Below, one piece after another: positions 7,752-63,352 of a stretch of 64,000 nt of DNA. Made by a program: the position numbers and the translations under genes. The stretch is from contig NC_092677.1 in the NCBI RefSeq assembly GCF_964355755.1, positions 23,361,175 through 23,425,174 on the forward strand. The letters run 5' to 3'. This DNA comes from Antedon mediterranea (Eukaryota > Animalia > Echinodermata). The notes beneath the pieces were generated by a model. The model made no database searches. It was not told the DNA's origin and worked only from the letters and a program-made list of their open reading frames with translations. Each line of letters opens with the position of its first letter. Within the stretch, counting starts at the first letter, position 1.

Positions 7752-7900
7752 TATTAATCCATGGAATAGTTCAATTTATGCAGACATTAGCAGACCAATT
7801 TCATTGTTGAGATGTATTGTTGTTATTAAGGTTAACATGTGTGCTATGAGCAAATGTTTTCATACGATACAGTACTGCTTGCAAAGCGTGCCATACGTAC

Positions 7901-7973
7901 CTTTTCTTCTATAGTCTGCAAAATGGACATGTTGATTGCCTCCGCTGATGTTAAAAATGGTTGTTACAAACAC
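7901..7973 (-). other. AP1G1: Probable upstream AP1G1 exon with an in-frame ATG (7930) encoding MSILQTIEEK
   Basis: Flanked by tttacag and gtacg. A phase-0 splice to the acceptor at 2766 gives MSILQTIEEK-LAK-MPAP. Confidence 0.6.
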
Positions 7974-8792
7974 CTGTAAAATGTAAGAGTTATTCTAGAA
8001 ATCATTTTTAGTGGTTTCAATAAAAAAAAAGTGGTTGCAGGGCCCGAGGTGCGTTATGGTATTTATAAAGTATGTCACATCAGACAATGACATAGTCAAT
8101 TCAACAATGTTTACTTTGTTGCAATTAAATAATTTGAATAAGGCCTTTTTTGGCCTATATATTACAGTGGGTCATATAATTTACAATAAAAGTGCATACT
8201 GTAGGCCTAGCCTAACTATTTTTGCCTCTATCATTGGTTATCATAGTCATACACTGCAGTAGGCCTAGGCCTAGGCCTACCTAGCCTAGAAAAATGTAAA
8301 TAAAACAGAAAGAATAACAATTCAATGATGGAAAACTTCTTTCACTTTATTAATATTATCCATTATTTGTTTTATAATTACAACAATATACAAAATATTA
8401 ATAGGCCTAGGCTAGCTAGGCCTAATACACATGCCTGTAGCCTAGCCTATAAAAACAAATAAGTAAAACAATCTGACTCAGTCAAGCCCTACTGATAACT
8501 AGGTGTAGTCATATAGGAATTAATCAACCCTACTAGGCCTATGTTCTAGATATGTAGGCCTATGCCACAATGACCCGAGGAGCAGTTCTAGGTCCCCCGC
8601 CTCCAGCCAGGATGCACCAACCGGCAAAACAAAATCATTCTCCACTTCTTCACACTCTGCATATGAGAGACACAGACGCTCTGCACACTAGGACAGAGTG
8701 CATGTAAATCACTGCCGATATACAATATAATAGTAAAAATCATGTAGCCCGATAACTTAGTTTAAACTGTAATTACATTTTGTACACACTAC

Positions 8793-8900
8793 CTTTCTAT
8801 AAAAATCATAGAAAATCGCATTTGATGACAAAACAGAGTAAAATCATCAAAATAGTCTTCTCAATAAAAATGATCCACTCCTTCTTTCAAGATGGCCGAC
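8793..8900 (-). promoter_or_regulatory. Likely first (non-coding) exon / TSS region of AP1G1 with a YY1-like motif
   Basis: CGGCCATCTTG on the minus strand (~8888-8898), followed by a donor AAAG|GTAGT at 8793. Confidence 0.5.
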
Positions 8901-11051
8901 AGAAGACTGATTTCAATAAAAATATTCATCCGCAAATATGAAATACGTATTATCGATAAAGTAACTGTAAACAAAAAGCATATTCATTTGACCGGATGTC
9001 TCTTTAAAAAAAATGGTTTACTTCACAGGTACTTGATTTCTTATTATTTTTATTTTTTCAACAATTAGGTTTTAGCCCTATTAAATAGATCATTGCGCAT
9101 ACACTGTTTACTTATGAGTGATTTGTCGGAACTCGTGGCATCAATGACATCATTGAATAAGCGCCCTCAAGTTCCATTAGACTTTGATTTTTCCCTAGAT
9201 ATCTTTGTATATTTATGTATAATAATGGGTTAAATTATAATATATTCAATGAATTCTCAGATAAATAAACATTTACAAATAGACAATAATAGCTTACACT
9301 ATATTTTCACATGTATTAAATCATTTTTCCTATTGATCCAATGTCAGTGCACTTAGGCAGCAACTGAGTCTAGGTTCTAGACCAAAAGTACAGTAAAAAG
9401 ATAAATATTTTGGCACATATGGCGATACATATATACAATATAACAAAGACAATAACTACAGACTTGCAGCAAGTCTAGAAGCAACCAGTGTCGCAGCCAC
9501 AAGCTGTTGCTTATGATTGGTCAACTTAATTGCATTGCACTTATGTTGTTGTTGCATTGAGAGGCCTTTATAACGTGAGATCCATGCAAAAGAATACAAA
9601 ATCAAAACATGAATTCAAATATACAAAGATTTTATTGACTATGTTCAATTGTGAAATTCAACATGTTCTCATAACCAAAATAATAATCTTAAATTGACAA
9701 GTCAATTTTGTAAGAAGTATGTTAAATACTGTACAGTATATATTCATATAGCATGTTAACCAATGCCATATTAAAACAGAACGTCCAATGAGAATGAGTA
9801 CTTGATATTACCAGTAGTCTATTTTCATTGGATCAGTAAGTTGTAAAAAATGGGAGGGGGGAATTAAAAATTGTAAAAAAAATTGCTGAAATTAATGTTA
9901 TATTTTTGTTACAGTTTTCTTTTAAATTTAGGACAGGGAAGAGGGCAGGTAGGGATGGATCCACGAAGGTATCCAAAATAAAGCATAGATTTAATAATTA
10001 TTATTTTAGGTGTAAATGAAAAATATGAAAACGATGTAAAATGGCCAATAGCAGCTGTACAATAGGGGGGGGGGGGGGAGGGTTTTGATACAGTATTAGC
10101 GCTCTTTCATTGACAACAATATGGATCTTCCCATTACAGCCCCCCCCCCCCTCCCCCACTTCATTGGTTGTGCTAATCATTTAATGCATCTGGAAACTTA
10201 AAAATAATTTAATCATCACTCTAGACGATATAAAACATTTGTTTTACGTTATTTAAATTTAAATCCTTTCTAATAAATACTCCAGAACAATATTTATGCA
10301 ACAACATTAGTATTTGTTATTACCCTAAAAGTAAAAACAATTTGCCAAAATTGAATTTTAGAACTTAAAATAAAAATACTGTATAAACAAACTCAAGTAG
10401 TTTAAAATAAAACACAACACAACAACTTGATAGTAGCATGATGCCTTAAAATCAACACAAATTTACAAATGAGATGAAAATAAATTTACAGATTCTATTC
10501 CAATTAAAGCTTTGTGTAAAATAACGGTGTCTTACAGTTAATAACATAAATTCAGGCTGGCTTCGAGTTGACTTGTGTTCAACAGGCAAATGGTCTCTAT
10601 TTAGAGGGAGTATACTTTGAAGATGCGAGGTTTCTACCCTAAATGACTGAGGCTAAATAAGGTATTTTTAATAGGTTTAGGAAAAATGCAAAATACAGTA
10701 CATTTTTATGACTGTAACTTTCTGAAACTGTTGGTTTTATTGTTCTGGCCTTCCGAAAAATTGCATTTTTTGTTTGACCTAGGTCAAAGGCTCAAATAGT
10801 GCAATTCAGTGACCCCAAAAAGTCAACCTGCACATATACGGGCGTGGGATAGGTCTTCAAAGGGGTATTGCAATACTGCTTGGGTATACAAACAACAGGT
10901 ACATAAACAGTATATTATGTTGATTAACATATTTTACAGTTTAAGATTAGTAATTTTTTTTCTGTAATTCCAACAATTTTCTTATGAATGAAAACTTTGC
11001 TTACATAACAATCAGTACATTGATTTGATTAGGCATTATTTGCACAATTAA

Positions 11052-41900: not shown

Positions 41901-44900
41901 ATACCATTCACTTTGATCTTAGCTCCTGGACTTCCAGGCTTGATTTCAACTTCACCATCACTGTTTGAAACTATTGCATGTTTCTTCTGGATGCTAAAAC
42001 AAGGAAACAGACATATGCCATTTTTAAACTTAAAATGTATGAAAATGATTCCCTGAGGTTGAAAAAGCTCCCAAATTCTTAACCAGTAAAATCAATTCAC
42101 ATGCACTTTAACGAACCCAGTTCATCAATTAAGATGAGTATGAGTAGGTGGGGGGGGGGGGGGTGTCGTGTTTACCCCAGTCAGCTGGTTCACAAAATAG
42201 CCCCTGTGTCACGGATATCTGATAGGGCAGTGATTATTTTTACTATTGGTAAACCTTGGCCTAAAGACATAAAATAAAATGAAAATAAACACATTCGGTA
42301 TACTAGACTTTTCAGAAAACCTGAAATCCCAGCCCAAGGGTGTTCGGTATTGGGAAAGTTGACTGGACTCCCAAATACCTTATTAAATCAACAAACAAGA
42401 GTCAAATACAGTATTTTGAATATATTTTTTATTTCTTGCTACCTAAATATACCACATTTGTTATAAACATTTTTTTTAAGATTAAAAAAGTTGTAGTTCC
42501 AAAAAAAAATATTTAAAATACATTACCTCAAACCATTAAGTGTAATAGTTGGTTGAGGGTCAGCATCTTTACGTCCGAACGTTGTTTCACTAGAGCCAAG
42601 GAAATGACAAACAACTCCTGACAATTGTGGATCTTCATTTAGGTTCAATAAATGTGGTTCTTTCTTCTTTCTACTTGCGGTCAAATCTCTTTCATTATTT
42701 TCACTTACATCCTCAGCCCTTTGTTGTTCAAGCTTTTACAAAATAAATAATATATCTTTCATGTTTATATAATAACAATCTCCGTTAACAGTAAGTCTGT
42801 TCAGGCTACAATCGACTTTCTTACTTCTTATTACAAACCTTACTCAATGATGTCATTGCTACATTTTTACATTTCTGTTTAAACTGAAGGTTTTGTGAAT
42901 AGAAAACTTAGTAGCAAAGGTATTTTAAGTTAACAATTTATAATAGCACCCTTTGCAAAAAAACAACCTATGTTTCATATAAGTTTCGTATATCGCGTCG
43001 TTTCATATAAAAACGTATACGAAAGACAGGAAGTAAAACAGGAAGTTAATTGCAGTATACGGCCGTATACGATCAGTATACGCTCGTATATGACCCACAT
43101 ACGGCTCGTATATGACCCGTATACGGCCGTATATTACTCGTATACGGCTCCTATATGATCCGTATACGACTCGTGTACGAGACGTATACGACTACTTGAC
43201 CACAAAACCTCCATTAACTGTCTAATCTAAACAAATTCCCGAATTAATTACAATTGTATGAAACGGAGTATTATCACTTGTTGCAATTAAGACCGAAACA
43301 ACAACGACAATACGCCGATCGGCTGCTTACGCAAAGCAAGGATTTCCCTTTTTAAAGTTCTTTAGAAACACCACGAGTCGTCGCTCAAGCGGGAAGAGTA
43401 GGCCTAGTCTAGCCTACTACATGAACACTGTAGGCTTACTAATGCATTGACGTCAAACAAAAAATTACGTAAGGGCAAAATTCGCTAAATCGTTTTATAA
43501 ACGTTTTACTCAAAAGGTACATAAAGCAGGGAGTTGTAAAATTATTTATTATTATTTTACAACTCCCTGCATAAAGTTACTTTCAGTAGTGATTTTAACC
43601 ACCTAATTTATATATTAATTAAATTCATTTGTTATACAGAACCTGTATTAAGGGTACACATTCGGAATCCAAACAAATTGAGTAAATTTCCCTAGTAAAT
43701 TAATATAATTAGGCCTATTTGGTATTTTTTGTTTGTATAGAGGTTTCCCAGAAGGAGGGGTTATACTGTAATTAGTTATTTAGGTTAAATAATTTGCTCC
43801 GAACATTTTAAAACATACACAGTACGGTACTGGATTCTGTTCTTAAGAACATTTACAAAGAACGATTGAGCGTCGAAACTATAAATAGACGATGGAGAAT
43901 AATTATACGATACGATGAATCAATACATGAACCAACTGAACTTCTAAATATAGTGTTCGGTTAATCGTACAAAAGGATGCCGACCTCTAACCCGGCCCTC
44001 CGTGTTGTTATCTCGGCGCGTTTGAAGCTGATCGACTCGAATTTTTTTTAACCTAACAATAATTGTAACAAGTTTGTACAGTAATGGTTCATAAACACAA
44101 CATCGATCAAAACAGTACTGGTTTATACTATGGTTTAAACATAATAATAACCGAATTTACACAATGTATTACATTTTGAATGTAGTCCTACAGTGTTAGG
44201 TTAAATTCTCTTTGTGGCTAATATAGGCCTACATTCAAACATTATTTGTTTGTTTCTTTAATTTAAATAACTGCATTTCCGCCTTGTATAGGCCCACACA
44301 TTAAATAGGGTGGGTTTAGTATTTTTTTTATTAATTTGTTTGTTAATTAGCATAACATAATGTATCATAAATTATCGTATGACGAATGTTGTTTAGATTT
44401 TTTATTTTTTCCTGAAAATAAATATAAATACATAGAATTGACCAGGCTTTTAGGCTTTCTGGTAAGGTAGAATGCAGAACAATTTCAATAATTTCAGCAG
44501 AAAAGAGGAAACACCGTAAACTTTGTAATTCTGTGCCGCGCTTGCAGACAGCACGGCATTTTAACAAAAACCTATTTAATTGAAGCAAAACAAAACAATG
44601 TACAGTACGTTGTTATTGTATGTCTTGTATTGTATATTGTATTGATCTTTAACAGCTTGGACGTGTTTGTCCACAAAAAACGTTTTCACTTTGTGTATCC
44701 GGTGATGATTTGACCACCAGAGAAACGTTCAAAGGAAAACAACACCTCACGCGGAAAGCACATCGGGGTGATAGGATTTCCCCATTTAGGCCTACACCAC
44801 TCGATCAAAACCGCAACACCGGCGTTCAACGCCCGTCTTTATTCAACAACTGTGCGTGGTTACACACCGTTGCGGTGATGTAAAAACTTCCAGGGTAGGC

Positions 44901-45565
44901 TTACTTCGGCCCTGTCCCCCAACCCTTCGGGGCGTTGAAGCAGCGCGAGTTAATCGAGTGACACAGTAGGCCTGTGATTTTTACCTAATAAAACCATATC
45001 AATTTTACTTTGAGTATGCCCTTCGTCTTAATATGGCCTTTTGCAATGCTATTCAAAAACCCTGAATACAGTTTAATGCAATCTCATCAATTACGTTAGT
45101 TAAAAGCAAGGAAAAGAGGCTACTAAAGTATCATCAGTACAACTTTTATAATAGGCCTATACATGATGTTATATTCTCCAAACATCATCACGCGATTTAA
45201 TATAGCCTTCTAATAATATATAATACAAAATAATAATGTGTTTTACGGTAGGTATTGTTAGGGTTTATTTAATTGATTTATCCAAAGGAAATTTACTGAC
45301 AAAAATGACAATACGAGTATCAGTGGATTAGTGATTGGTTTTGTAGATTAAGAGTAATCATGTATTTAAATTACATGTTGTACTTGTTATATTTGGAGAA
45401 GGAGAAGGAGGGGAATGAATGAGTTTTATTACATGTTACCGTATGTGTAGATTAAGTATGTTTTTGTCTATCTTGTGCTTTCATTTATTACCGTATATAT
45501 TTTTGTTGGACGCACCTTCAAAATGTGAAGTGTGCCACTGTTACAAAAGTAAAGTTCCGAAATAA

Positions 45566-45625
<60 letters not shown>

Positions 45626-48600
45626 TAACCATCCCGCAACTGACTTTAGTTACTGGAGAGTAAAGAATGGTTATAATCCAACTAATTACCTATTTTCCCC
45701 AAAAATGTCAAAGATCATCATTGTAATCTAATTTCATCTAAAGTAGTGAATACTTTGGTATTCATAACATTTAGAACAAAGTATTCTTCTCGAAATCATT
45801 TCCGAAATTAATAGATTATTAGAGTTTATTTCGGAATACCTTTGAAGATCAACATTGGCGGTTAGAGTCTAAGAACGCGTTGAAGCAAATCTAACTGTCA
45901 GTTGTTTATATGCCCAAGCAAAATCAGAAAGGGCTTTTGATGTGCATTATATAAACACGGCATTGCTCTCATTCACTCATTGCATTATTTATTACAAATC
46001 ACAAACAACCTTTGCCTGAACAAAAATGAGCACTCGTGAAAATAGTCAGGAGAATGGGCCGTGGATTGATGTTATGAAAGCGAAATATGGGAATCAACCC
46101 TTATACGCAGGGTCACAGATTTCCACGGTAGACAGCCTGAGTTTGCTGATGGCATATTGCCTTGAGCACAACGCAACAGAACGTAATATATCTAATATTT
46201 TAGATATAATACAACTTCATTTGCCAAAGGAATCAACAATTCCAAAACATCTAAGGTCGTACTACTACCTAAAACAAGATTACGACATAGGGAAAAAAGA
46301 AACAATTAACAAACATCCCATATGTAGTCATTGCGGCTATCTGTCGGAAGATGGGATGGATGCAACAAGTTGTTCTATGTGCAAGAGGTTGGGTACATTT
46401 ACCAACGAATCTTATTTTATCACATTGGACATCAAAAGCCAACTAGAAGAATTATTTAAAGGTAAGTTTGAATTTCTTTCGTCTTGCCTTTATACTCGTT
46501 AATATTTACTACACGTGTATAATATACAGTATTAGGGCAATTTAAGGAGTATGAATTGTAAATAAAACTGAAATTGTAAACCGCAAATTCTTGATGAGCG
46601 AGGATGAACTAATAATATGTATTTTTGTACTATACTTAGGCCTACAAAACTCCGAACGTTCACTTTCTAAAAATTTATTTTGATCATGTCACTTATTGCC
46701 AATTGTTTGCACGCACCCTTTGTGAAATTGAATAGTTATATAGTAGGATTGCCATATAATGTGGGGCTTTTGGTTAATATTTGTCTTCTTTTTACCCAGA
46801 TCCTGCCGTGGTAAAGGGATTGTCTGTCAATAAAACATCGGAAGATGGGGTAATTCGGGACATTTATGATGGAGAAATATATAAACGCCGAAATACTTCA
46901 ACGGACACATTGTTGCTAACATTAACTTGGCATTTTGACGGTGTGAGTGTATCCAAAAGTTCGAAGCAGTCGATTTGGCCTCTTCATGCGGTCATAAATG
47001 AACTGCCACCAAAAAGAAGGTAGATTTTTGTGGGCTTTTTTATTCACTCACTCTCCCCTTTACCGCTGGACCACTGTTCCTCATGTAACCGCATTTTAAA
47101 ACTTAGATTAACTATTTTGATGTTTAATGTTACAGGTTCAATAAGAATCGTATTCTTATGTTTGGCCTATGGTCTGGAGACAGTAAGCCTCAAATGCCAT
47201 CGTTCATGATACCATTGACGCCCATTATTAACGATCTGTATAACAATGGTAAGAAATATAATTTGTTGTAATGTTTACGTTTCTTTCTCTTAATTTACGA
47301 GTTTGCGCCAGTGTTGGTCAAACATTGTATTTGTAACGTGTTGTTCCAATAATCAAAATATTAGAAAGCAGAAAAGGTGTTCGTTTACCACGGACTAACA
47401 CTTTATAGGCCTACTGTATTAATTAGGTTAGTGGCCGGAACTAAACACCGTAGCGTAGGGATGATTTCCGGACACCATGTTATTTATTTAAGCCTATTAA
47501 ATTCCTAGAAATGCATATCGGTCCGTGGAGATCGGTCCATGAACTATTTTCCACTATTATATGTTCGCGCAACTCAAAAGCGTCAGCTTATACGCATGCG
47601 TATTCATTTTCCAATTTCCAAATCCCACTCTTAGGAGGCATGCGTCGTGTAAGCTGAGCTGAGGTGGTGAGGTGATGATTCGCGCAGCGCAAACAAATTC
47701 GCCTTTCCGATTTTTCGGAACATGAATACGCAATACTGTAGTATAAAACCTTGCGCCTACATTGCTGGTTTGCTTATCGTTTCCAGCAAATTTTGTCAAA
47801 TCGTATAACATATGACCGGAGTGGGGGTTTGGGGTGTAGACTTCCTCCAAGTGTTAGAACGAAGACGACTAACAGATAACATTAATAATAATAGTTAGGC
47901 TAGACTAGAGGCCCTCCATCGGCCCTACTTTGTCTCTACGTTCTGAACTAGGCCTACACTCTTTTTGGCCCTAGACTAGTCACTAGTGGTGGTGTATGTA
48001 AGCTAGTGTTTTAGTGCGACTAGGCCTATGTTAGACAAGTAACTAACTAAAGTAATAATTAATATAGTATAACCTAGCTAGGCCTAGGCCTAGATATAGA
48101 GACAGCATAAAACAAAGAAGGTGGTATAAAATTACAAATATCTATGATTATTTAGTATAGTAGCATGTATTTTGAAGTTGATTCTTTTTAGTGGTTTAAC
48201 ACAGTGTAAACTATAGGTAGGGATACCGAGAGCTGACTCCATTTTCATTACCACGATTAAACAGCGCGCACGTTACTATGCGCGCAATGTCATTGACGCG
48301 GTGTTTTTTTACTTTGGTAAACACTTTTTATTAGGTAATTGTTCTGAAAATAAATAAATTATAAATATATCCTTTTGAGTATATATTTATTTACCTATTA
48401 TTCTATAAGATCAAGTATTTTTTATTTCCATTTCATTCAACCAAAAATGTGAATATAGTGGTTAAAAGATCGTTATCGCCTAGCGCGTATAGCTTTTGTT
48501 TACTACGAAACCCTCGGAAGGCTCAATGACCTACCATTTCAACCTTATTTTTGTAGTTGAGCCTCTTATGACCTCAAAATGTTTTTTATTCCTACACCAA

Positions 48601-51600
48601 GATAATATAGTTCCACATACCATGTGCTTGTTACTAAGAAAAATATTAATTTTAACTGCTAAAAAAACAATTTTATCCCGATATGAGGCCTTTATGATTC
48701 GAATATTTCATAGTAACAACCCATATACCATAAAAAATATCCGTTTAGTCCATTTTTTAAATAATTTTTGAAAAATTCCGAGGGGCTCAACTACAAAAAC
48801 GCCATTTTATGGTATGATGTCATCGCAAGCCAATCAAACCTCCGCTCCGCAAGTCCCACGGTTGAACGATTTTGGATTCTCGCCCTTTGATTGGTTGACG
48901 CCATTCAACACACAGCGGAATAATTTTCTCGCGAGTGCCGTGAAGTCACATGGTGTCAGGCCTGTCCAATTACACAGGAAAATAATGCATTGAAATTCTT
49001 CGAACGAGGTTAAATAAACACTCTTTTTTATACAATAAATAAGTAATATCATATTTTATTGAATTTTACAATGTTGATATATAAAATATGTTACTTAAAA
49101 TCGTGATTTTATATAATTATTTTTACGAAAAATGACTAGTTCATACAATTGTCGACTGAGGGCGCAATTTGTTTATATCGTTCGTGGCTAAAAACGATCA
49201 TTTTCGGCGATGTTTTAAACCCTATATTTCGAAAAGTACAAGTCATATTTTCATAATTCTTTCTTTATTATAATATTGATACAAAATACTAACAGGCAAT
49301 GTATAATTTGTTTGAAAAATATTAACTTTTAATTTTACATCGTTATCCCTACTATAGGCCTAGGTTATGTAAATTTATGACATTTTATGACATGACAACT
49401 TTTAAATTAACAATTTATTAAACAATTGTTAACATTTTAAACATTTTTTTCAAACTTCACAATTTGCTTGATGAGTTTGCCAGTTAAATTTAAAACATTA
49501 TAATTTATCGTAACATTTAAAATACACTGTAATTGACCGCTTCATTGGTTCCTTTATTACTCAAAATAAACCATTGAATTGTGGTTTGAGAGTGATTACA
49601 ACAGCTAAAATTGTTTATTTGCCTTTTTAATTATGTCTGCTGCCTTTGTCTTGATTTTCTTTGTAACACTTTGTATGGCTAATTGTTTATATCTCATTTA
49701 TATACTGTACTTATGCATAGTACTGTAGTTATAATTGTTGTCTGCCTTTGGAATTATTGTTCATTCCTAATGATGCTCAAAAAATAAAGATCAAAATGTT
49801 GAATCATGGCTTCCCCGTATTATTTAATATTTTTATTAATCAGTTTTAGATATTAACATGATTTCCCACATGATCAATAATATAGCTTAATTATCTCAAT
49901 AGTAATAGTTTATGATTAATTTTTGTATTATTCTCCTTTGTTTTAAAATATTTCAAATGAGTGACTGACACATACATGTACCTATAGACTCCCATTAGTC
50001 ATAAGTTTAACCAAAATGATAAAAGTTTAGTAATGCTGCCATCAGATTCTTAAAAACGTCATCTTGAATCTACTGTTTTATTTTGTGTTTTATGTTATAG
50101 ATATTTTATATTGTCAATTGTTTATTTTAAATAGGAATAAGCATCGGTGGACGTGAAGTTAAGGTTTTATTCCATGTAGGGACCATGGATTTGTTGGCCA
50201 TGTGTTTGACCAAAAACATGCAACAGTTTAATGGCAAACATGGCTGTGGAATGTGTGAAGTGTCTTCTGTCCGCGTACCTAAAGGAAAGGGAAGCGTATC
50301 TGTATATCCATGGATTCCTGCCAAACCCAAACTGCGTACTGCCAATGACATGATGGAGCAGGCAAAAGAAGCCATGCAAACTAAAGACTGTGTAAGTAGA
50401 CCAATAGTTTTTTTATAGAAAAGTAGTTTAGGTAGGGTTTGTTTTTTGGCAGTTATTTAAACAATTAAATTTACCTTTATTTTTATTTTATTTCCTAGGT
50501 CAAAGGAATAAAGGGATATACTATGCTATCCAAGATAACATATATCGACCCAGCTACAGACATTGTAGTCGATTACCTTCATGGTGTTTGTTCTGGCTTG
50601 ATGAAGAGCATGCTAAAAGTGTTGTTATTTGATCGCAGCAAACCGTGCTACATTGGTGATCAGATGACCGAGCTGGATGCGCGTTTGTGTGCAATCAAAC
50701 CTACTGACTGTATTACTAGAACACCAAGGTCGATTGGAGAAAATTTTGCAGATATCAAAGGTTAGGCCGAACTATTGACTTTATTTTATTATACATATTG
50801 CAGTTTTTAATCTTGTGTAAACTAAAAAAAAAAAAACTCTTCTATTTTTTCAAGGGATAAGCTAAAGCTGTTCCTGTGTTGGGTTTAAGGAACACGAAAA
50901 TAAGAAAGTATATATTATGTGTACTGTATTGTTTTTTATTAATTTTGATGTATAACGATATTAATTGATTATATTTTCAGCGGCTGAATTTCGTGCCTTC
51001 CTCATATATTATGGATGTGCCGTTTTTAAGGGTATCTTGCCAGAAGAGTATTATGTCCATTTTTGTTTGCTTTCATCTTCAATTTATATTTTAATGCAAG
51101 AAGAAATTACCCAAAATGAATTGGCAGTGGCAGAGACCAACTTACAAAAGTTTTATTACTTGTTCACTGACCTGTACGGTAAGTATTTTTAAGAGAATTG
51201 AAGAAACTATCTAGTGTTATTAAAACAAACAAAAAACAGTCCTATTTAGTAATGTTTAACAACTTTTCACATCATTGTATGGTTTTAAATTTAATAAAAA
51301 CAATATTTCTCACATCAATACTGATGTTAGAAACATGTAGTAATAGATCAATATGCCTCTTTTGTTTTTGCAGGTAAAGAAAATTGTACCATAAATTTGC
51401 ACAACACCTGTATGCATCTTGTGGATTGCGTAAGAAATGCAGGCCCTTTGTGGGCATTTGGGTGTTTTGCATTTGAAAGCAATTGCGGACAGATGGCCAA
51501 ATTTGTACGTGGCACTCGACATTGTGGGATGCAGGTAAAGCAATTGTTTCAGATTTATTTTTTTAAAATGTATATATAATATAACTTGCACTGATGAAGG

Positions 51601-54600
51601 GCTAGTGTTGGCCAAAAGCTTAGCTAATTTTAATGGATATTTATTTTTTATCTCCATTGAGATCCAGCCACAGCATTGAAATTTGTTCGATAATTTGCCT
51701 TTGAAATAACTAAGCTTTCACTTTTCAGAAATTGTGCCTCCTTCATAATATTTCATTCATTTTATTTATATATATATTTTTATTATTATTTGTTACTACC
51801 TCATTTTTCTTTAACTATGAACATTGTGCTGTATTTATATATTATGAAGGAAATAAATATTATGAAATGAAAATATAAAAATAAACAATTGTCTAATTTA
51901 AAAATCATTTTATCATATTTTTGTAGGTTGTAAACAATTACAAATATTTACAACGAGTTAAAACACTGGCAACTGAATCCAGAAGTCCTAGAGTTAAACA
52001 GCTCATTGGGAAAATGACTGGAGAAAAAACAATGTGAGTAACTTTTTTTTACATTATCACTTACAGTAATTCCTGTAATAACCATGTAATTCAGCAGTTA
52101 TGCTGCTAATTGGTTTTTTTTGTGTTATCAATAAATAACAATTAAAACCATGAATGTGTAAACATTGTTTCTGTATTAAAAGCTATAGCTCTTTGTTTAG
52201 CACAGGGCCTATTGTTAATTCGAACTTTGACTCTTCATTTTGTCAATGTTATCTTGTTGAAGCATTAAATCACTTAATAGACTTAATTTCTATTTATCTT
52301 ATCTGCCTTAGCTTTAAAACGCTGCATATTTAATATTTTTTTTAAATAGATTCTACACAGCAATTGTATACTTTCAGATTTATTTTTAAAAATGTATATA
52401 TAATATAACTTGCACTGTAAGGGCTAGTGTTGCCCGATAGCTCTGCTAAATTTCTGCCTGTTTTAATTATCGTTTTGATTTAGCTTTTCGCTTTTTTTTG
52501 TATCTCCATTGAGATCCAGCCACTGATACCCACAGCATTGTCATTTTTTCAGTAATTTGCCTTTGGATTTATAATATAACTTGCACTGATGAAGGGCTAG
52601 TGTTTTCAGAAATTGTGCCTCCTTCATAATATTTCAAACATTTTATTTATATCCAAAGACAAATTACTGAAAAAATGACAATGCTCTGGGTATCAGGGGT
52701 TGGATCTCAATGGAGATACAAAAAAAAAGGGAAAAGCTAAATCAAAACGATAAAGTAAAACCGCAAGAAAAGTTAGCAGAGCTTTCGGGCAACACTAGCC
52801 CTTCATTTATATGTATATTTTTATTATTATTTGTTACTACCTTATTTTTCTTTAACTATGAACTTTGTACTGTATTATTTATATATTATATGTTATGAAA
52901 GAAATAAATAATATGAAATGAAAATATAAAAATAAACAATTATCTAATGCTGCTAATTGGTTTTTTGTTATCAATAAATAACAATTAAAACCATGAAATG
53001 CGTAAACATTGTTTCTGTATTAAAAGCTATAGCTCTTTGTTTAGCACAGGGCCTATTGTTAATTCGAACTTTGACCCTTCATTTTGTCAATGTTATCTTT
53101 TTAAAGCATTAAATCACTTAATTTCTATTTATCTTATTTGCCAATTTTTTGTTGTTGTACCATTTTTTTTGTCAAGGTTCTGTTACACTGTTTTTATTTA
53201 TGTACCAAAAAATGATACCTGAAATTCATGCCTTCTGCTTTATATTAGCTTTAAAACGCTGCATGTTTAATTTTTTTTAATAGAGATTCTATACAGCATG
53301 TTGGTAGTAAACGACTGAATGAGGATTCTATGGACACAAAAATGGTCACTTCCTTCTTTAACTGCAAAGTTCAAAATGTTTCAAGATATTCAAAGTTGGA
53401 AAGAAAGTTTGACACAATTTACTCCGAAGATTGCAATAAGATAAAAAAAAGGATTGCCAATGTTGTCCAGTTCCGTGATGAAGAAGATGTAAAAATCGCA
53501 AGAATTAAATACTTTTTAGATGCCGATGGTAAAAATGTGGCTGTTGCGCGTGTGGCAACCATAACGTGTGAGAATGTTTATAAAGAAGGAAACAATGCGC
53601 TTTGGGTAAAAGCCAACATATGCGAAGACACTGGAAATTATGCAAAACGCATACAATTTGAAAGGTAAAATCAATTTTATCAAATCCATACAATAATGTG
53701 AACTCATTGAGCAAATTTAAACATAATATTACTAGTTAGATAAATAGCAATTCATTGTTCTTGCAGTAAATAAATTATTGTGTTTAAGTGAATGCATATG
53801 TACATTTAAGTACACCGAAAGCAAACATGAATTGTACAATTTTCATTCGATTTAATCTATAAACAGAAAGGAAAAAAATGTCAATATTTTCCATGTTTTT
53901 TTAGCACAATATAAAGATGTTTAAATATCCACATTCTTTACACTACTGTAATGTGCTTAAGCAAATTTAAACTTAATTACAAGTTAGATGAATAGAAATT
54001 CATTGTTTTTGCAGTAAATAAATTATTGTACAATTTCCATTTGGTTTGATCAATAAACAGTTGAATAACAAAAAAATTGTTAATATTTTAACACAAAATA
54101 ACGATTTTTTTTTTTTTTTTTTTTCATTTTTTAGTATTGAACTTCACATTATAAGAGTTGAAAATATCCTGAAGAAGGTTGTGTATATGGAAACTGATTT
54201 AGATGGAGGCATAGCTATTCCTATTGCTTGTAGGTGGGAACACGACTGATCTCTGTGATGGTTGCTGTTGTTCAGTCAGCGGTGTCCTATAAAATGATTG
54301 CTGTGGTTGGTTCGCATTGTTAGACCTTTGATGGTTTTCGGCAGCATGATTGTTATATTGCCACGAAGGTTCTTCCCGAGGCTGCTGTTGTTCCAAACTA
54401 GTGAAATGAAGATGAAGAAGTCAAAATGTCATATCAAATCAAAAGGTTCTTTTCAGAACCACAAAATTACAGAAAGAGATTTGAATTTGCAATTTTTATC
54501 CACGTATGGCTTAAAATAAAACACAACCACATATTGTTCTTCCATTGAAAACCCTAGATTCACTATATTCCATCTACAGAACTAATTTAAAATATCGATA

Positions 54601-57600
54601 TACCTTAGTGATTTTTGTCTAATCCTAACCATTTCTTGCCTTTTCTTGGAAATGACTTCACGGATGCTTGTCCTCGGTGTGTTTGGAAAAAGCTTTCTGG
54701 TAAAATCTATGCCAAATAAATCAAAATGTGTTAATTGCATTCAAAAACTGCACAATGTCATAACAAAACCCCATAGTAAGTGTGCGGAACAGTTTGCATT
54801 TCAAAGTGATTCTTAATAAAAAACACACATTTTTCACAAAAAAATATTAGAGATGGGAAATGCATTCAAATTAATTCTGATAACATTTTTAAACAGTGTA
54901 AAATTTGTCTCCCCTGTATAACACAGTTTAAATTACCTGTAATAGCACCCAGTCGGATTGGGTCTAAAACTTGGCGCTGGAGGCCATCTCGATTCTTGGT
55001 GGCAGAGAAAGAGCAACGATACATCTCATCTGAATCGAAAAAATGGTTCACTAAAATTCTTGTGCACTTCGAAAAAGTTGAGCTTGATCTGCATTCAGAT
55101 TGAATGTGTTCCGGAATTTTCTGCAAAATTAAAATATGGTTGTCAGTTAATAAGTTATTCCACCTTCTTAAAACAAAATTACCACAATGACAGTAATTTT
55201 TAAATACTGAATAGAATTGTATGGCTTACAAATCAACACATACTGATAATAGTTAGTGCAAAACTTACTTTTAAGAAATCATCTATCTCTTTCTGCTGTC
55301 GAGATTTCTGAGGAGGGCCTGGGGTGCGATTTTCTATCTGTAAAATAATTTCATATACTGTGCTATCTCAAATATTTTGAAATCTTTTTATTAATCATAC
55401 AATCGGAATATAATACAAATCGGAGATTTTTTTTGGTAACAAAATACTTGTTCTCATATAAAATAACAACTTTAAATTTTGGTGGCCAAAATGTCAATAG
55501 TTTGAATGAAATTACCTTGGCATGCAAACTACTTATTTGTTCCTTCATCACCTTGTTGTCCTCCACAAGAAAGTTGACCTGGGTGCAGAGTTCCTTTACG
55601 GTTCGTAAAAGTGTGCTGTGCTCATTTGTGGATACTGGTGTTGTAAATGGAGAATTTGTTGATTGCTGCAAAGGTTTGTATGGTGTTGGTCGTAATGGTG
55701 CATTTGATGATGAAGGTAAAGGTGGAGATGAAGGTAAAGGTGGAGATGGTGATCGTCCAGATGACATTGATGTTGAAGTTGATGGTGCTGGCGACAGTTC
55801 TTGTGGAGGCTCTTGTGAAGGCGAGGGTTCTTGTGAAGGTGATATTTCTCTAAAAGGTGATGGTTCTCGGGAAGGGGAAGATGCTTGTGCTTGTGGTGAC
55901 TGTGATTTGGTGGCATTTGTTTGAAACAGCTTTCCACACATTGCAAAAGCAGTGCCTGCAACATCATCTCTTCTTTCTAAAATAAACATATAAAAATGCC
56001 TGAAGAGTTTTTTTTTAAATTAATTAAAATATATTTACTCATAAAATACAATAGAGTAATAAGATCAGAACATACCTTTTCTTTGTAATGCTACTGCTGC
56101 AAACAAATAAATAAAATATATATTCATTATAATAATATATTTGTGAATATTTTGGTGTAGAAAATACATACGACACATGACTGTAGAGGAATTGATATTG
56201 ATTATATTGTTCCATAGTATATTATATACAATTTATATAAAACTTACTCATATTTTTTGTCTTCTTTTCTTTGTTTTTGTCTGAAATTTTAGATAAATTT
56301 TGAAGTACCTTGGTTATTTTTTATTTACAGTATTCTGTCCTACTTATTTACAAGCTTGTCTTTTTCAAGAATTCAAATATTTTAAAACATTCAAGAAAGG
56401 TTTATAAATTCATTTAGCTTGGCATAATTAAGACAATAAAATAACATAGAAAAATACATCAAATTGCAAGTTGACTGTTCCAACTTAAACAATCTATAAT
56501 TTTACATTGCATATCTAACCTCATTTTGCGTTGCATTACTTAAAAGTTTGCCATAAGAATAAAAAAAGGATATTGTAAATTACTTAAAATTAATTGATAT
56601 CTTACCTTCCTTTTTCTTCGCTTTTCTCTTCTTTGATTTTTCTTCTGTGGACTCTAAAGAGTAAATTAAGAAATTGTTATCAAATGGAGGAAAACAAAAT
56701 ATGATTCACTTTAGCTAACCTTTCAGGGTATTTTATTTACATGTATAATGTATGTTATTCAATAATCACCAACTATCGGTGTCAGTGATCTATTAAATCA
56801 TCCAGCTAAGGTGTACTGTATGTTTTGTTGTATTGTATATTTACAGTAGGTTTTATCATATTGCTAAAAGATTAAGGCTACTAATTTAAATAATAGATTT
56901 TAAACCCATTTTTAATATTCTGAGAATGTTTTAACTTTTTTAAGATTTTATTTACTGTTTTTTGGCTGTTTCCCAATCATCAGCATTGCTAATTTAGGGC
57001 GCTTTCTCTATATAATCTATTATATAATCACTTTCCACTCGGGAAGTGAGCCTTTCACTTCCTTTGTTCTAGCATGCATCAATAGCCTTTTATATTTTTG
57101 CAACTGTGTTCTTAATTACTAATAACTTAATTACGTTTTAGTAAGTGGTTTTCGACTTAAAACGTAAATATTGAGTACTTTGCGTGCGGAGTGAGCAACA
57201 ATGGGCTGGGGCATTTTAGCCATACAAAAATCTTGCTGTAAATATCCTAAAGTGGTCGCTAATGAATTGCCATGATCAGTGGCGTATCCAGTAGGGGGAC
57301 GGGGGGGGGCGGCCTCCCCCCCCCCCCTGATTTCGTTTCCGTCGGCACATCATCGCGGCCGTCGGCAAACAAAGGTGCCGGGGAAAAAATTAAACTATTT
57401 ATTCTGACAATAATTGAACTGTAAACATAATTCTTTTGAGTGTTTGTTTATTTACATATCATATCATCATTGATCCCTTCAGATCAACTATTTTTTAATT
57501 TCATTACATCTAACGAAACACGTAAAAAATGTGTAGCACGTACGTACGCGGTAGATTGTTTACTCAAAAGTCTTTGACCTTTACCCTAAAACCTTGTTTT

Positions 57601-60600
57601 TGCATGCAGTTGAGCCTCTCATGACCTGGGATTTGTATGTCTTCCTACGCTAAGAGATTATATAGTTCCACATGCCATGTGCTTTTTTGTCTATATTTAT
57701 TATAAGTGCAAAAAACCCGGTTTTTTTTCTCGATATGAGGCCTTTATTATTCAAAATTTTTAAAGAAAAAGCACATATATCATAAAAAATATCCATGTAT
57801 TTCATTTTTGGAACAGAATATTCCGTGAGGCTCAACTACAAAACCACCATTTTGTGATATGATGTCATCGTAAGCCAATCAAAGCTGAGCTTTTTCGCGA
57901 TTGGCATTGCTCACGGTTGAATGATTTAAGATTCTAGCTGATTTGATTGGTGGATGCGAATCACCCGCAGCGGAATGTTTTCTCTCGCGCGTGTACCATG
58001 AATCTCTCTGATCGTTACTACACAAAGTTAGAGCAATGAATTTGTCCGAATTCCGTTAAGTAAACAACTTTATATATTTTATAAGCATTTAATAACATGT
58101 TTTATTGATATTTCCAATGGTGATATATAAAATAAATTACTAAAAAACGTAATTATATGTAATTATTTTAACCAAAAATGGCGTAGTTAATAGAATTGTC
58201 GACTGAGGCCGCAAATTGTTTTACTTCTTTCGTGGCTAAAAACGATCATTTTCGGCGATGTTTTAGACCCTATATTTCGAAAACTACAAATCAGATTTTC
58301 CTAATTCTTTCTTTATTGTAATATGAATACAACATACTAACAGATAATGTTGGTTTGGTTTTAATTTTGCATCGTTATCCCCGGATATAAGACAATATGA
58401 CTATATGTAATCCTTGATCAGAGACGTCGTGTATGTACACCAATTTTGTCGGCAAATTGGCAATTCCCGCCCCGCCCCCCCCCCCCCCCCCCACTTCAAA
58501 ATCCTGGATACGCCACCGGCCATGACTAAATATAACTTAAAAAATCCAAAGGATAAATTGAAAAATATACGCGACCGGCAAACGTAGTACCAAACGCACG
58601 GACAAACTGTATTCGTAAATAAAAATAAATTTGTTAAACCAATTTAAACGTCGAGCCTTTGTAACTTTTGTTCTATATTCGCGATACTATTCGCACGACA
58701 GGCTTTATACTGGGCATTAATTAGACTTGTAAACAACCCAACGAAAGTGACCGAAATTCGAACAAAGGGGCATCGCCAAACAAGAGTGCGTACCTAGTAA
58801 ATACTGTACACGCTTTGGTGCCTGTAACTTGATACAGCCCAGATCGACGCTTGAACCGCAAGAAAATGAGTCCGTGAGTTAAAGACGTTCACCTCCCTGT
58901 TTTACTATTGGTTAAAAGAACCATGTAGGCTGGTAATATTTTTGGACAAAATTATAAAAATCGTTTTTTTTTTTTAAATAATGATTCTTCACGACTACAT
59001 TTATAGTATAAATAATAATATATAACATAATAAAGTGTATGTGTGATCATTTTTATCACAATTTGAGAGGAAAATGCAATAAAATTAATTTATATATTTT
59101 AAAAGTATAGAACATTATGCGAGTATTTATATTATAATACAATATAATACATATATCAACAAAAATACGTAATTGCAATTAATTTTTCCGCGGTCGATAG
59201 CCGGCATGCATTAATCACAATCGCAATTACTACAAAATCCTACGTTGGATCATGGAGGTATTATACCTCCATGGTTGGATGGACACAACGCAATGACATG
59301 ATAATATTTGCATCGCTTAGGCCTAACCTATCTGACGGTACATTATAATTAGGACATTCGCATTAAACGCAAAATACGATTGTTTTGCTGATTCCTATCG
59401 CGCTAAGGGAGTGTCATTTCCGGCCAATTATATGCGTGAAATATAAACAGCAATAAATTTACCTTCATTTTTCTTGTCTTTTCTCTTCTTTGATTTTCCT
59501 CCTACAGACCCTAAAGAGTAAATTGTAAAAAATGTTTCAAATGAAGAAAATTGTTTGTATAAGTATTAATTATGTACAGTTTAGTGTGTATGAAATAATA
59601 CTAGAGCAATAATTAATTATGCCATACCTTTCGTTGTTGCAACTTCCGGGGCAACTTGTGTTTCTGTAGACCCTCAATTGTAAAAACAAGACATCGTTAT
59701 TTATACTACAGTACAGACAAATATATTTTAATATATATTAAAGTTTGATCAACCAATATAGCCAACATTTTAATTCAGCTGGTCACTCGATTGCAAATGT
59801 CAGAGTTATTTGCAATAGACCACGATGTCAAATGGATCGATAAAACTCGCAAAGACACATAGTTTCATTTGTTATCTATGACGATCTATTGTATAAAAAA
59901 TAACTCGTGTAAACTTAATAAATCAGATTTAAACACGGAAAAATACGATTTCAATAACGTAGACATTTTTTTTACACCCTCCCCTCTCTAAAAAATTCCA
60001 GCATGACGAGCAAACAAAAAAGACTTAATCACACATCATCAGCAATTGATATTAATAATCGTAATGCTGGTGGTAATTTATATTTATAATCACAAGTTTA
60101 CCATCATTTCTGTTATGTATAAAAATGATTAATTTATTAAATATTACATACCACTGTCCAGATTCTTTTTAGTGTCTGAAAAAAACAACATAATTAAGAA
60201 AATTGAATAATAGATTTTATCATTAGTATAGATGTGATGGCCGTTAAAAAACGTGGCACACAATGCGCGAATAGCCCATTTTTAACCACTGGAGTTTTGT
60301 GATATGAAATAAAGTTGGCACCCTTTTTGTATTAGGAGTCATGGAATTAATTACTGCATGACGAAACATCCATCAGGGATGTGTTATTATTAAGTGATCC
60401 ATGCACGTCACAAAAAGAGCATGTGTACAGTACATTAAAAAGTAAGATAGATAGTATGCATATCAATATGACTTAATACAATAATACAATTTTAGAGTTT
60501 CACAATAAGTGCTATAAGTACATGAACAAAAAAGAATACGGGATGGGATTGATGGACAAAACTACTACATCAACATACCTCCAACTCTAACAATTTCGCC

Positions 60601-63352
60601 TTCCCAACCTCGGCTTGGCAAGATTACTCGCGTCCCGACTGCAAATGCGGCAACATTTAGTTTTAATTTTTCCGCAATTTCTGGTTTTAAATCTGTGATG
60701 GTATTATCGTCCCACTCGACGCGACACCATTCTGTAAAAAAAGTTAATCTTTATTATCAATCATTTCTTTAGTATGCTAACAGTTAATATTAATAATTAC
60801 TTGTAAGAAGTTATACAAATTCATTTCTGTACCAAACTTAAATACTAATATGATCATAGAACAGAGAATTGTGTAATAATACAATAATCTGCATTTACTA
60901 GTGACTATAAAATAGCCTAAATATGTGTCTATGTCGCATGACATAATAAATAATTAGAAAAAAAATGACTAATTAATTCACCATGCCTTAACTTGAACAA
61001 CATAATTATATAAGCAACAATGCAAACTAAACCTACTTTAAGAAATTATGTGCAATATTTATCAAATTCTGCCTATTTATAAAATATAAGTTAATTGAAA
61101 ATCCTGCCAAAAGTTTTACTTACTTTTTTCTCCAGGAAACGTCATTAGGCTAATTTCTATATCTCACCGTCAATGTGTTACATGTATTGCTTGAGCTGAA
61201 CGAATGTATAAAAAATGTACACATTTGACATATAACCAATCGTATGCAGCCCCGGCCCCGTTATTGATCGTAATAACAAAAAAGGAATTAGATCAATTGT
61301 TTAATATAAGAGGCACGCCTAACCTTTTGTTTAGTGCAGGCGTGGTTGAAAGCGCTTAGAAAAAAAACACAAAGAATGTTGCAACGATTACTGTACGATA
61401 CTCATGATTCATAGTCATATTCTTTTAAACGGTTCAACTTTATTTAGTAGCCATTTTTAATTACTTAAAATAAAAATGTGTTGTACAGTCAGTGAATCAT
61501 ATAACGCATAAAATCAGTTGATTGTGATCGTGAATTAAATGTTGGTATGTCCCTATCATTTATAATGTCTCTGAGCCTCCATACTAAATAATCGGGTTGT
61601 GGTTACTACCAGTGACGTTTATAGCTCCATGAAACCGAGAGTAGCTGTTTTCTGACTTGTACAAACTATAAACATTTTTTTTGGTATACTTTTTAACAAT
61701 AATATTTTATAGCCTATGTATAAAATATACGAACATTATTAATAGTACTTCATTCATATTTAAAAAACAAAACCACAATAAATATCCGAATCGTCCGCAA
61801 GCCCTCCACTAAACAGAGCCTCGAGATTCAAACATTCTTGGCTTGGCATGGTATCAACGCTACAAAGAAAGAAGTCAAATACGCGACATTTACCGAAGGC
61901 CGCGCATACACACTATTTTATTGTTTTTTTATAGTATTATTATCCGACCTGTAACAGTAGGCCTAAAAATAGCCTGAGTAAACAGAAGCCATGGTCAAAT
62001 TGGTAACTAGGCCTTACGCAATCAATAATTTTATTATGTCAATAAATATATCGCTACTTTTCATGTAGGAGGCCTAACTGTTGTGAAATCCATGGAAAAT
62101 TCCCTTTATGGTTTGAGCCGATCGACGCGGTGATCGTTGTTGCTGCTACCCACGTTACAAAGACAGCTGCCTTATATAAGGCCGTATACGCTCAAATACG
62201 GCCGTATAACAGCCCGTATACGCTCATATACGGCCGTATACTAGACGATATACGGCCGTATACTAGACGATATACGGCCGTATACTAGACGGTATACGGC
62301 CGGATATGGGCCGTATATGAGCCCATATACGCTCGTATAAAACAATAACGTTTTGTATACAACGTATACGAACGGATGTAGTATACTAACATATATGAAA
62401 CATAGGTTGTTTTTTTGCAAAGGGCAGTTATATATATTTTATTTATATTAGTATTGATGATATAAGTTTTTTTTCTTTTTTCTAATTTACAAACTTTCTC
62501 ATTTACAAACTACTTTCAAACTTTACTCAATGATGTCATTACTACATTTTTTCCATTTCATTTTAAACTTATAGATTTGTGAAGAAAAAAACCTTAGTAG
62601 CAAAGGTATTTTAAGTTTAAAGTGAAGAGTATTAAACAAAACTAAATTGTTACTTTTTGATCCCAGTCCATATCTGAAATAGCTTTTTGATTTGCCAGTA
62701 ACTGGGCTCTAATTTCCTCCTCCATTTCTTTCTTCATTTTGTCAATATCTTTTTAAATAAATGATTAAAAGAATATAAGAAAAGCAGTATGGTGTAATAC
62801 TAAAGTTCTGTCTACACTATCAAACTAGTTTGACAAAAAAGGTGTGATGTGCCCAAATATGGTATACCCAAATATACAATGACATCATCAAGTTCATATA
62901 TGGGCACATCACACTTATTTTGCCACACTAGTTTTATAGTGTAGATAGAGCTTAATGCGCATACTGTATAATCTTTGAAAATAGGGCATATAGTCTAGTG
63001 GTGATATGTCTGTCCACATACCAATAGAAAAAAGTCCATTTGGAATAATATTGATTTTGAATTAAATTTAAGGGGTAAATATTTTTATTCAACTCAAATA
63101 TATGTATGTTAATAAACAACAAAAATACCTTCTTGACTCATTCCTACATTTTCTGGCATCATTCCTCCTGTTAGTGATTTCTTTAGTTTGTCATTTTCTT
63201 CACGTAATTCACGGATAAGTTTATCCATAGGATTCTCATTGACTACAGCCTTATTCTTAATCTTCTTTGCTCTGTCAGCGTATCGCAATGTACCAAGTGT
63301 CTCATCATAGTTGATATCAGCAGGTGACAAGGCTGCTATCATCACAGTTTTA
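26970..63352 (-). CDS. KIF28: Kinesin-3 family KIF28/KLP-6-like protein, from the end of the motor domain to the C-terminus; gene begins beyond the right edge
   Basis: In-frame GT-AG exons 63352-63129 ([33 protein letters not shown]), 62748-62654, 42732-42527 and 41993-41851 (FHA: [28 protein letters not shown]), 41111-40968, 40265-40118, 39305-39218, 38482-38312 (DPFWEP), 37779-37657, 36993-36724, 36500-36327, 35538-35410, 33627-33574, 33194-32985, then last exon 31118-31059 or 27128-26970. The tail exons are less certain than the rest. Confidence 0.88.
27875..28219. mobile_element. TTAA-flanked MITE (Kolobok-like), copy 2
   Basis: ttaa|agatgtattgtccc ... gggacaatacatct|ttaa. Confidence 0.82.
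29094..29437. repeat. 38-bp G-rich minisatellite, ~9 copies
   Basis: (gaggaggcaagtaggagggttgggagaggatgggggct)n. Confidence 0.95.
31340..32705. mobile_element. PIF/Harbinger-type non-autonomous element
   Basis: tta|aggctggtttcctgtcgacgtaa ... ttacgtcgacaggaaaccagcct|tta; 3-bp TTA TSD. Confidence 0.88.
34340..34500 (+). mobile_element. Short L2/CR1 3'-tail remnant
   Basis: tggaat...tttaaatctctcctcaaaacacacctc...gcgctata...(tta)n. Confidence 0.55.
37173..37642. repeat. 36-bp minisatellite, ~13 copies, intronic
   Basis: (gtgatgaactgctagacatggtaacactaaaggtca)n. Confidence 0.95.
38836..39272. repeat. 94-bp tandem repeat (~4.6 copies) made from a kinesin exon 3' half plus its donor site
   Basis: Units start at 38836, 38930, 39024, 39118 and 39212. 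Confidence 0.95.
41575..41770 (+). mobile_element. Decayed RTE-clade LINE 3' fragment
   Basis: Interrupted LRW..HILRK...G.PKVMWKD...GL....A.DRKKWR motif. Confidence 0.65.
42080..42265 (+). mobile_element. SINE 3' part, opposite orientation to the other copies
   Basis: gcactttaacgaacccagttcatc...atctgatagggcagtgatt...tactattggtaaaccttggcc. Confidence 0.6.
42985..43192. repeat. Left subterminal repeat array (CGTATACG / TATACGGCCGTATA)
   Basis: Perfect palindrome GTATACGGCCGTATAC at 43055-43070 plus many half-sites. Confidence 0.9.
45567..45625. repeat. (TTA)n microsatellite after AATAAA, possibly a retroelement tail
   Basis: Seen directly. Confidence 0.85.
45948..45982 (+). promoter_or_regulatory. 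Putative TATA + initiator promoter of the transposase
   Basis: TATATAAA at 45948, TCATT about 30 nt downstream, ATG at 46026. Confidence 0.5.
46026..54249 (+). CDS. CMC/EnSpm DDE transposase (TnpD-like), ~749 aa, 10 exons
   Basis: Exons 46026-46461, 46800-47019, 47136-47248, 50135-50391, 50499-50760, 50981-51178, 51374-51534, 51927-52033, 53284-53664 and 54135-54249 total 2250 nt, all GT-AG with no internal stop. Motifs: CxxC..Cxx[60 protein letters not shown]. Confidence 0.93.
48218..49351. mobile_element. Nested MITE in transposase intron 3
   Basis: ctatagg|tagggataccga ... tcgttatcccta|ctatagg (7-bp duplication). The interior is homologous to ~57590-58381. Confidence 0.72.
54199..61145 (-). 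CDS. Transposon accessory protein with a C-terminal BEN domain, ~469 aa, 13 exons
   Basis: Exons 61145-61124, 60731-60579, 60175-60152, 59672-59628, 59510-59463, 56653-56606, 56280-56248, 56096-56076, 55976-55516, 55337-55269, 55120-54937, 54706-54604 and 54397-54199 total 1410 nt in frame. BEN-like [20 protein letters not shown]...[18 protein letters not shown]...[11 protein letters not shown] follows a Ser/Pro tract and a coiled coil. The domain call is by eye. Confidence 0.82.
57277..58518. mobile_element. Nested hAT-type non-autonomous element in a BEN-gene intron
   Basis: gccatgat|cagtggcgtatccag ... ctggatacgccaccg|gccatgac; 8-bp TSD with one mismatch. Confidence 0.85.
62180..62390. 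repeat. Right subterminal repeat array
   Basis: 22-bp unit tatacggccgtatactagacga, ~3 copies, plus variants. Confidence 0.9.

Follow-up and report, generated by a model that had tools for sequence, protein, structure and literature searches.

A 51-bp antisense overlap between the coding ends of convergent transposase and BEN-like genes in a CMCT-clade transposon of Antedon mediterranea

An overlap of two coding ends

The two convergent genes of a CMCT-clade, EnSpm-like cut-and-paste transposon in Antedon mediterranea overlap in their coding ends by 51 bp, at positions 54199-54249 of the 64,000-nucleotide stretch of DNA that we analyzed (the window, to which all positions refer). The stop codon of the transposase gene (TGA, 54247-54249, +) lies beyond that of a BEN-like accessory gene (TAA, 54201-54199, -), and the two frames use the same triplets on opposite strands, i.e., the overlap is codon-in-register. 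Both peptides encoded in the overlap terminate intact spliced gene models. The preliminary description of this DNA had placed the overlap at exactly these coordinates, and our analyses bear it out. The overlap is real and mildly unusual, and any regulatory role for it is purely hypothetical; we consider it probable that it represents an incidental run-on of the BEN tail and not a built-in silencing switch.

The transposon

The transposon is 19,476 bp in length (42949-62424) and carries two open gene models in convergent orientation, the transposase on the plus strand and the BEN-like gene on the minus strand. Its terminal inverted repeats (TIRs), at 42949-42981 (+, starting with CCC) and 62392-62424 (-), form a perfect pair over 33 bp, and directly outside them is a CA target-site duplication (TSD) at 42947-42948 on the left and 62425-62426 on the right. 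Both ends also have a subterminal field of CGTATA/TATACG repeats (42987-43190 and 62183-62370). As given in PMC12730594, the definition of the CMCT clade comprises TIRs, a TSD of 2-5 bp, within which the CA flanks fall, and the motifs C(2)C and H(3-4)H in the interval from the second D to the E of the transposase. The element termini are CCC..GGG and not the 5'-CA..TG-3' which that definition has "in most cases", and not strictly; the related locus L014 apparently also ends in GGG. The strict EnSpm/CACTA criteria set out in PMC12730594 are CAC..GTG termini and a 3-bp TSD, neither of which this element has. Because of its CCC..GGG termini and 2-bp TSD we filed it as CMCT and EnSpm-like, not as EnSpm proper.

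We also considered describing the locus as a domesticated gene pair, and rejected this because the TIRs, TSD and subterminal repeats are all intact. The whole element is apparently intact (TIRs, TSD and two open genes) despite several high-copy insertions in its introns. The DNA run X2 has even depth across the element and one unbranched 4.2-kb contig, which is compatible with one or few copies, the depth comparison being one made inside the element only. One high-copy repeat is present in two 74%-identical copies, 48541-49349 and 57590-58381, with each of the two genes having one of them in an intron, and the latter copy falls within a segment (57271-58524) that has inverted ends of its own. 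An 86%-identical direct repeat (42831-42931 and 62514-62617) flanks the element, and the insertion site seems to be a tandem repeat of about 200 bp.

Upstream of the element, exon-like ORFs of a host gene extend over 16046-37044 (-). A Pfam scan of these ORFs found no family at the cut-off, and one of them has what we take to be a resemblance to a kinesin-3 tail. At three positions in the window (54364, 59458, and 60009) all three runs examined have an alternative letter at full depth, and there the window represents either the other haplotype or base errors. The variant at 54364 is synonymous in the BEN frame, and none is listed inside the overlap.

The transposase gene

The CMCT-clade DDE transposase gene (46026-54249, +) is modeled with 10 exons encoding 749 aa; the model is open throughout and all of its introns are GT..AG. 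Exons 1-5 (46026-46461, 46800-47019, 47136-47248, 50135-50391, and 50499-50760) correspond to the RefSeq protein XP_071958667.1 of Antedon mediterranea, which ends just inside intron 5 and has 430 aa, and exons 6-10 follow at 50981-51178, 51374-51534, 51927-52033, 53284-53664, and 54135-54249. The 430-aa form has a Pfam Transposase_21 score of 22.3 bits, against a curated cut-off of 28.6. Among its relatives, P0003 and P0152 score above the cut-off (42.6 and 43.1 bits, respectively) and P0046 below it (25.0 bits).

For comparison we used the 104 relatives of at least 690 aa, out of 150 that were fetched. The DDE triad is kept in the Antedon protein as D192, D275, and E530, in columns conserved in 100, 100, and 98% of these relatives, respectively, and based on their position and conservation these three are the putative catalytic residues. 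In the interval from D275 to E530, the protein has C294-x2-C297 and H505-x4-H510, as the CMCT definition requires.

The last exon (54135-54249) codes for the conserved C-terminus of the family. In 55 of the 104 long relatives the C-terminal end is [ED]x[DE], and the peptide encoded in the overlap is this terminal motif. The closest relative covering the C-terminus, XP_033110644.1 of the crinoid Anneissia, is identical at 6/15 residues within the overlap, at 6/22 across the remainder of the last exon and at 32/127 in exon 9, and given these identities the transposase side appears to have no sign of reshaping by the overlap. A "PN" dipeptide is found in 31 of the 55 relatives that end in [ED]x[DE]. 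An overlap-forced loss of this dipeptide was rejected, since the Anneissia and Amphiura relatives are also without it and since the PN codons create no antisense stop. Intron 9 ends in a T20 polypyrimidine tract and acceptor (54105-54134, +), and the first AATAAA past the transposase stop, a predicted poly(A) signal, lies inside the last BEN intron (54515-54520, +).

The BEN-like gene

The BEN-like accessory gene (54199-61145, -) is a spliced model of 13 exons with GT..AG introns that encodes 469 aa, its 5'-most exons being predicted. Exons 1-7 are at 61145-61124, 60731-60579, 60175-60152, 59672-59628, 59510-59463, 56653-56606, and 56280-56248, and exons 8-13 at 56096-56076, 55976-55516, 55337-55269, 55120-54937, 54706-54604, and 54397-54199. 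In the protein, a V.W domain at the N-terminus, linkers rich in K/E and in S/P/T, a BEN-like domain (within 55120-54604) and a 66-aa tail can be distinguished. The assignment of the domain draws on several comparisons: Pfam PF10523 on the first BEN exon only gave 16.5 bits (E = 0.0098-0.025; cut-off 23.2), a profile built from two relatives that pass the Pfam cut-off matched the BEN-like model alone at E = 1.4e-5, and in the Atlas the model is at 0.93 to a cluster in which 31% carry BEN. Searching proteins with the first BEN exon gave no match and missed the product of the gene itself as well; this is weak evidence. A 48-nt K/E-rich exon of this gene is duplicated with its flanks (56602-56693 and 59459-59550, 83% identical).

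The tail is encoded by the last exon (54199-54397, -), and 36 of its 66 residues are Q, N, S, or P; it had no Pfam match. The intron before it, at 54398-54603 (-), is also covered unspliced in run X1. On the minus strand, an A20 run (54124-54105) begins 75 nt past the BEN stop, after ACTAAA/AATGAA, and these features would together constitute the BEN 3' end.

Transcripts of the two genes

Five runs cover the region, none of which is recorded as RNA, and three of them were examined. Run X1 (listed as "RNA?") was taken as RNA because of its splice joints; it represents one sample, and its contigs are unstranded and merge both strands. Along the BEN-like gene there are six joints in X1 with CT..AC ends and one further joint at 59509|59627. 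The joint 54397|54604 (CT..AC, depth 17.9) leads into the BEN last exon, and the exon at 55337-55269 is supported as well. On the transposase side there is a GT..AG joint at intron 4, and a 685-nt contig maps to 53245-53664 and 54137-54399, i.e., intron 9 has been removed (53664|54135). The latter joint is absent from the joint table, from which two joints at repeats were dropped, and the two letters of the contig that are left over are the expected 54135-54136. This contig retains the end of intron 8 and so is not a fully spliced transposase mRNA. Six transposase introns have the exons on either side in range, and joints were seen at just two of these, introns 4 and 9; X1 is without cover over most of introns 9 and 6. 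The DNA run X2 crosses 53070-57309 without a gap, and the splice joints are absent from the DNA contigs.

The GT..AG joints on the plus strand and the CT..AC joints on the minus strand in X1 indicate that both strands are transcribed and that both last exons are used. A different last exon for either gene, a possibility raised in the preliminary description, was not found for the spliced forms, as both last exons are spliced in the X1 contigs. Since these spliced exons overlap, mRNAs of the two genes that reach the stops necessarily share 51 nt or more of complementary sequence, and if both predicted 3' ends are used the complementarity of the mature mRNAs would extend to as much as about 260 nt (54135-54397). 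It is possible that complementary mRNAs give rise to dsRNA. Folding of the shared region on the plus strand produced no unusual hairpin (z = 0.80).

An unspliced X1 path crosses the last BEN intron (54370-54633) at a depth of 13.8, vs. 17.9 for the spliced joint, and represents either BEN RNA with the intron retained or the transposase 3' UTR. Retention of the intron would give a stop at 54584-54582 (TAG) and an isoform without the coding overlap. The BEN contig has a depth of 31.5, vs. about 8-13 on the transposase pieces, contig depth being a poor measure of level. Depth arithmetic fits BEN RNA over about half of 54135-54399, which we did not count as evidence, since contig depth shows neither levels nor ends.

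Three further features of the transposase gene were observed in X1. Firstly, introns 5, 7, and 8 are unspliced (50761-53283), and the RefSeq protein ends before H505, H510, and E530; control of the transposase by splicing failure is possible. Secondly, one X1 allele (depth 10.4) has 73 nt deleted at 50090-50162, with five other letters instead, which removes the exon-4 acceptor; this probably represents a null allele that segregates in the species. Thirdly, one X1 contig is without 844 nt (52158-53001) between two duplicated segments of intron 8, a length polymorphism of the intron in which the missing part includes a palindromic high-copy repeat (52419-52803).

Overlap length and gene order in relatives

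In a codon-in-register overlap, antisense stops can come only from TTA, CTA, and TCA codons, of which the transposase has 25 among its 749. For a BEN frame that extends to the transposase stop, the probability of 15 open in-register codons is P = 0.60, and 474 of the 735 windows of the transposase coding sequence are open antisense for 15 codons. Among the 22 relatives with a captured C-terminus (those of 32 related loci in which the transposase stop was captured), 13 likewise keep this antisense frame open over 51 nt or more, counted from the stop, as do 9/14 once near-identical elements are merged. In short, for genes in facing orientation an overlap of this length is not beyond chance. The 65 codons of the BEN last exon were all open in 3.9% of shuffles, which suggests that the BEN tail is truly coding, and maybe selected, and has no bearing on its last 16 codons.

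We examined gene order at the 32 loci, which are from metagenomes and encode transposase relatives about 28-36% identical to that of Antedon. BEN (Pfam) was found in none of the 137 downstream minus-strand ORFs of at least 45 aa, which were from 24 of the 32 loci. Upstream, 149 of 278 minus-strand ORFs in this size class and one shorter ORF were scanned, and two passed the BEN cut-off, in L021 and L024, both on the opposite strand to the transposase. A home-built profile matched none of 686 downstream minus-strand ORFs (5,833 ORFs of at least 20 aa were screened overall) and upstream gave one weak match (L032, E = 0.59) and one motif match (L005). Pieces resembling the N-terminal domain occur upstream in L002, L008, and L024/L025, and weakly in L005/L027; L002 was matched by the Antedon sequence at E = 0.012, and L002, L008, and L025 (to which L024 is near-identical) then served as seeds. 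These BEN screens are insensitive (the Antedon element's own BEN exon has E = 0.0098-0.025), and seven distinct elements had at least 1 kb of downstream DNA. In a quick tree the metagenome relatives fall outside the crinoid/ophiuroid clade that the Antedon transposase forms with its nearest relatives, those of Anneissia and, as XP_072047976.1, of Amphiura. The comparison shows that the distant relatives are head-to-head and that a tail-to-tail overlap is not family-wide, a result limited to distant kin.

No relatives were found in scans of viral and genome contig collections, and an automatic TIR search of 16 related loci returned no convincing pair. In L002, a HECT-domain gene (6419-9522, -) is in facing orientation to the transposase, whose stop lies about 1.8 kb away, with no overlap. 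In L014, a P-element-like THAP transposase (6192-10183, -) adjoins the apparent right end of the related element.

Interpretation of the overlap

The preliminary description regarded the overlap as a built-in source of dsRNA or transcriptional collision with which the element could regulate itself or feed host small-RNA silencing. Of this interpretation, the convergent transposon genes and the overlap of their spliced last exons stand; the "built-in" device fits poorly with a length as expected by chance and with a layout unseen in the distant relatives examined. In an incidental run-on, the low-complexity BEN tail would have grown across the opposite strand of the conserved last transposase exon and would have halted at the first in-register stop, provided by a TTA (Leu) codon of the transposase at 54199-54201. 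Our inference is that it was the BEN tail that extended into the transposase, and not the other way round, because the transposase end is the terminus of its family and the BEN tail is Q/N/S/P-rich and without a Pfam match; the residues of the tail are presumably under little constraint. The consequence would be a tail-to-tail natural antisense pair whose mRNAs have no fewer than 51 and perhaps as many as about 260 nt of complementary sequence, and any dsRNA would be a by-product, limited in amount by the scarcer transposase RNA, with no dedicated switch.

Supporting an incidental run-on are the ordinary length of the overlap, the apparently unreshaped transposase end, the presence of BEN only upstream in relatives and the inefficiency of MuDR antisense silencing. 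Counting against it are the distance of the relatives compared and the possibility that the BEN tail is selected as coding. In addition, coding/coding overlaps are described as selected against in five metazoan genomes (PMC2330155), so the persistence of this one may mean something. Convergent 3' overlaps are described as the commonest overlap class in human, mouse and fly (PMC2330155).

The overlap could instead be that of a functional cis-natural antisense transcript (cis-NAT), as the first reading of the locus would have it: BEN mRNA would pair with transposase mRNA over the last exons, Dicer would generate siRNAs and the transposase would thereby be self-limited. This is consistent with the splicing of both strands in one sample, with a predicted complementarity of up to about 260 nt and with the greater depth of the BEN contig (31.5 vs. 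about 8-13, a poor level measure), and in Drosophila convergent 3' overlaps are reported to give rise to cis-NAT siRNAs more often than any other arrangement (PMC13228617). We nevertheless consider it unlikely, based on the fact that the tail-to-tail layout was not seen in the distant relatives, that only 5/694 siRNA-producing cis-NAT genes are reported as derepressed in D. melanogaster dcr2 testis (PMC13228617), and that the antisense RNA of MuDR is described as an inefficient silencer (PMC3440606).

More speculatively, a crinoid CMCT lineage would have moved its BEN gene from head-to-head to tail-to-tail, so that the 3' ends became interlocked and the transposase polypyrimidine tract came to serve also as the 3' end of the BEN gene. 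BEN mRNA, the more abundant of the two, would then be an antisense repressor, as a siRNA source or as a splice-site mask, of a self-limiting element regulated by its accessory RNA and not only by protein. We regard this scenario as a long shot.

Masking of splice sites by antisense RNA has been proposed as the mechanism at TRalpha2/Rev-erbalpha. Here, each predicted 3' UTR would cover the last 3' splice site of the other gene and so switch its last exon. The geometry would allow this, since the transposase UTR to the AATAAA at 54515 spans the BEN acceptor at 54398 and the BEN UTR to the A20 run spans the transposase acceptor at 54134; furthermore, the unspliced (13.8) and spliced (17.9) depths at the last BEN intron together approximate that upstream (31.5). 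However, transposase intron 9 is bridged by an X1 contig and no retained form of it was seen in X1, the unspliced path at the BEN intron is perhaps transposase 3' UTR or pre-mRNA, the contigs are unstranded, and both 3' ends are predicted. Such masking is very doubtful.

We give only slightly less credence to the idea that the overlap is seldom realized as protein, with transposase RNA mostly incompletely spliced or truncated, BEN RNA often keeping its last intron and the overlapping C-termini being minor products. The RefSeq model that ends in intron 5 at 430 aa, the X1 contigs that continue without splicing from transposase exon 8 across intron 8, with joints only at introns 4 and 9, and the X1 allele without the exon-4 acceptor would all agree with this. 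All 10 transposase exons are open, however, the last of them retains the family terminus, and the spliced BEN joint is deeper than the unspliced path, all transcript observations being from one sample.

RNA polymerase II transcribes beyond poly(A) sites in any tail-to-tail gene pair, and a transcriptional collision, in which polymerases from both ends meet at the overlap and expression is mutually exclusive per copy, would agree with the convergent layout and the transcription of both genes in one sample, but is the most improbable of these readings as the 51 shared coding bases add nothing specific beyond any such pair.

If the overlap is incidental, it is a clean, small case of eukaryotic overprinting inside a transposon, and the locus is a record of an intact CMCT element of an animal in which a BEN-like gene accompanies the transposase. 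If it is functional, a DNA transposon could dampen itself via the RNA of its accessory gene, and the locus would be a compact, testable one for endo-siRNA work in echinoderms.

Comparison with known systems

Repbase includes EnSpm-like families of animals that carry second genes. Our literature search, outside of which lay Repbase and most subscription journals, did not find a description of a CMCT/EnSpm element paired with BEN or of a coding overlap in DNA transposons. The CMCT clade, as delimited in PMC12730594, consists of EnSpm/CACTA, Mirage, Chapaev, Transib, Plavaka, ESTA, as well as Lanisha. Relative to the features given there, the Antedon element differs in its CCC..GGG ends (not CA..TG), in its 2-bp TSD (vs. 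3 bp for fungal EnSpm) and in having as its second gene a BEN-like gene on the opposite strand that overlaps the transposase end. The animal CMCT relatives L002, L005, L008, L021, L024/L025, L027, and L032 share with it the transposase and pieces of an opposite-strand accessory gene that resembles that of Antedon (N-terminal V.W domain, K/E- and S/P/T-rich linker and BEN). In these relatives, however, the accessory gene is upstream and head-to-head, and so there is no 3' overlap.

Maize MuDR, as described in PMC3440606, similarly has two convergent genes (mudrA and mudrB) with antisense RNA possible at their facing 3' ends. Unlike the Antedon element, it belongs to another superfamily, and its antisense RNA, which is reported not to silence efficiently, arises via termination failure in an intergenic region and not from a coding overlap (PMC3440606). 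In Drosophila, the 3'-overlapping cis-NATs are also tail-to-tail with complementary 3' regions, but these are 3' UTR overlaps of host genes for which siRNAs have been sequenced, whereas in Antedon the coding ends of transposon genes overlap; these pairs are reported to yield siRNAs often, with 5/694 genes repressed in one species and 360/992 in its sister species (PMC13228617). In its structure the transposon pair resembles TRalpha2/Rev-erbalpha, an antisense coding overlap at convergent 3' ends in which one partner has a last exon subject to alternative processing, and which is described as lineage-restricted (PMC3047299). That pair, however, consists of host nuclear-receptor genes of eutherian mammals.
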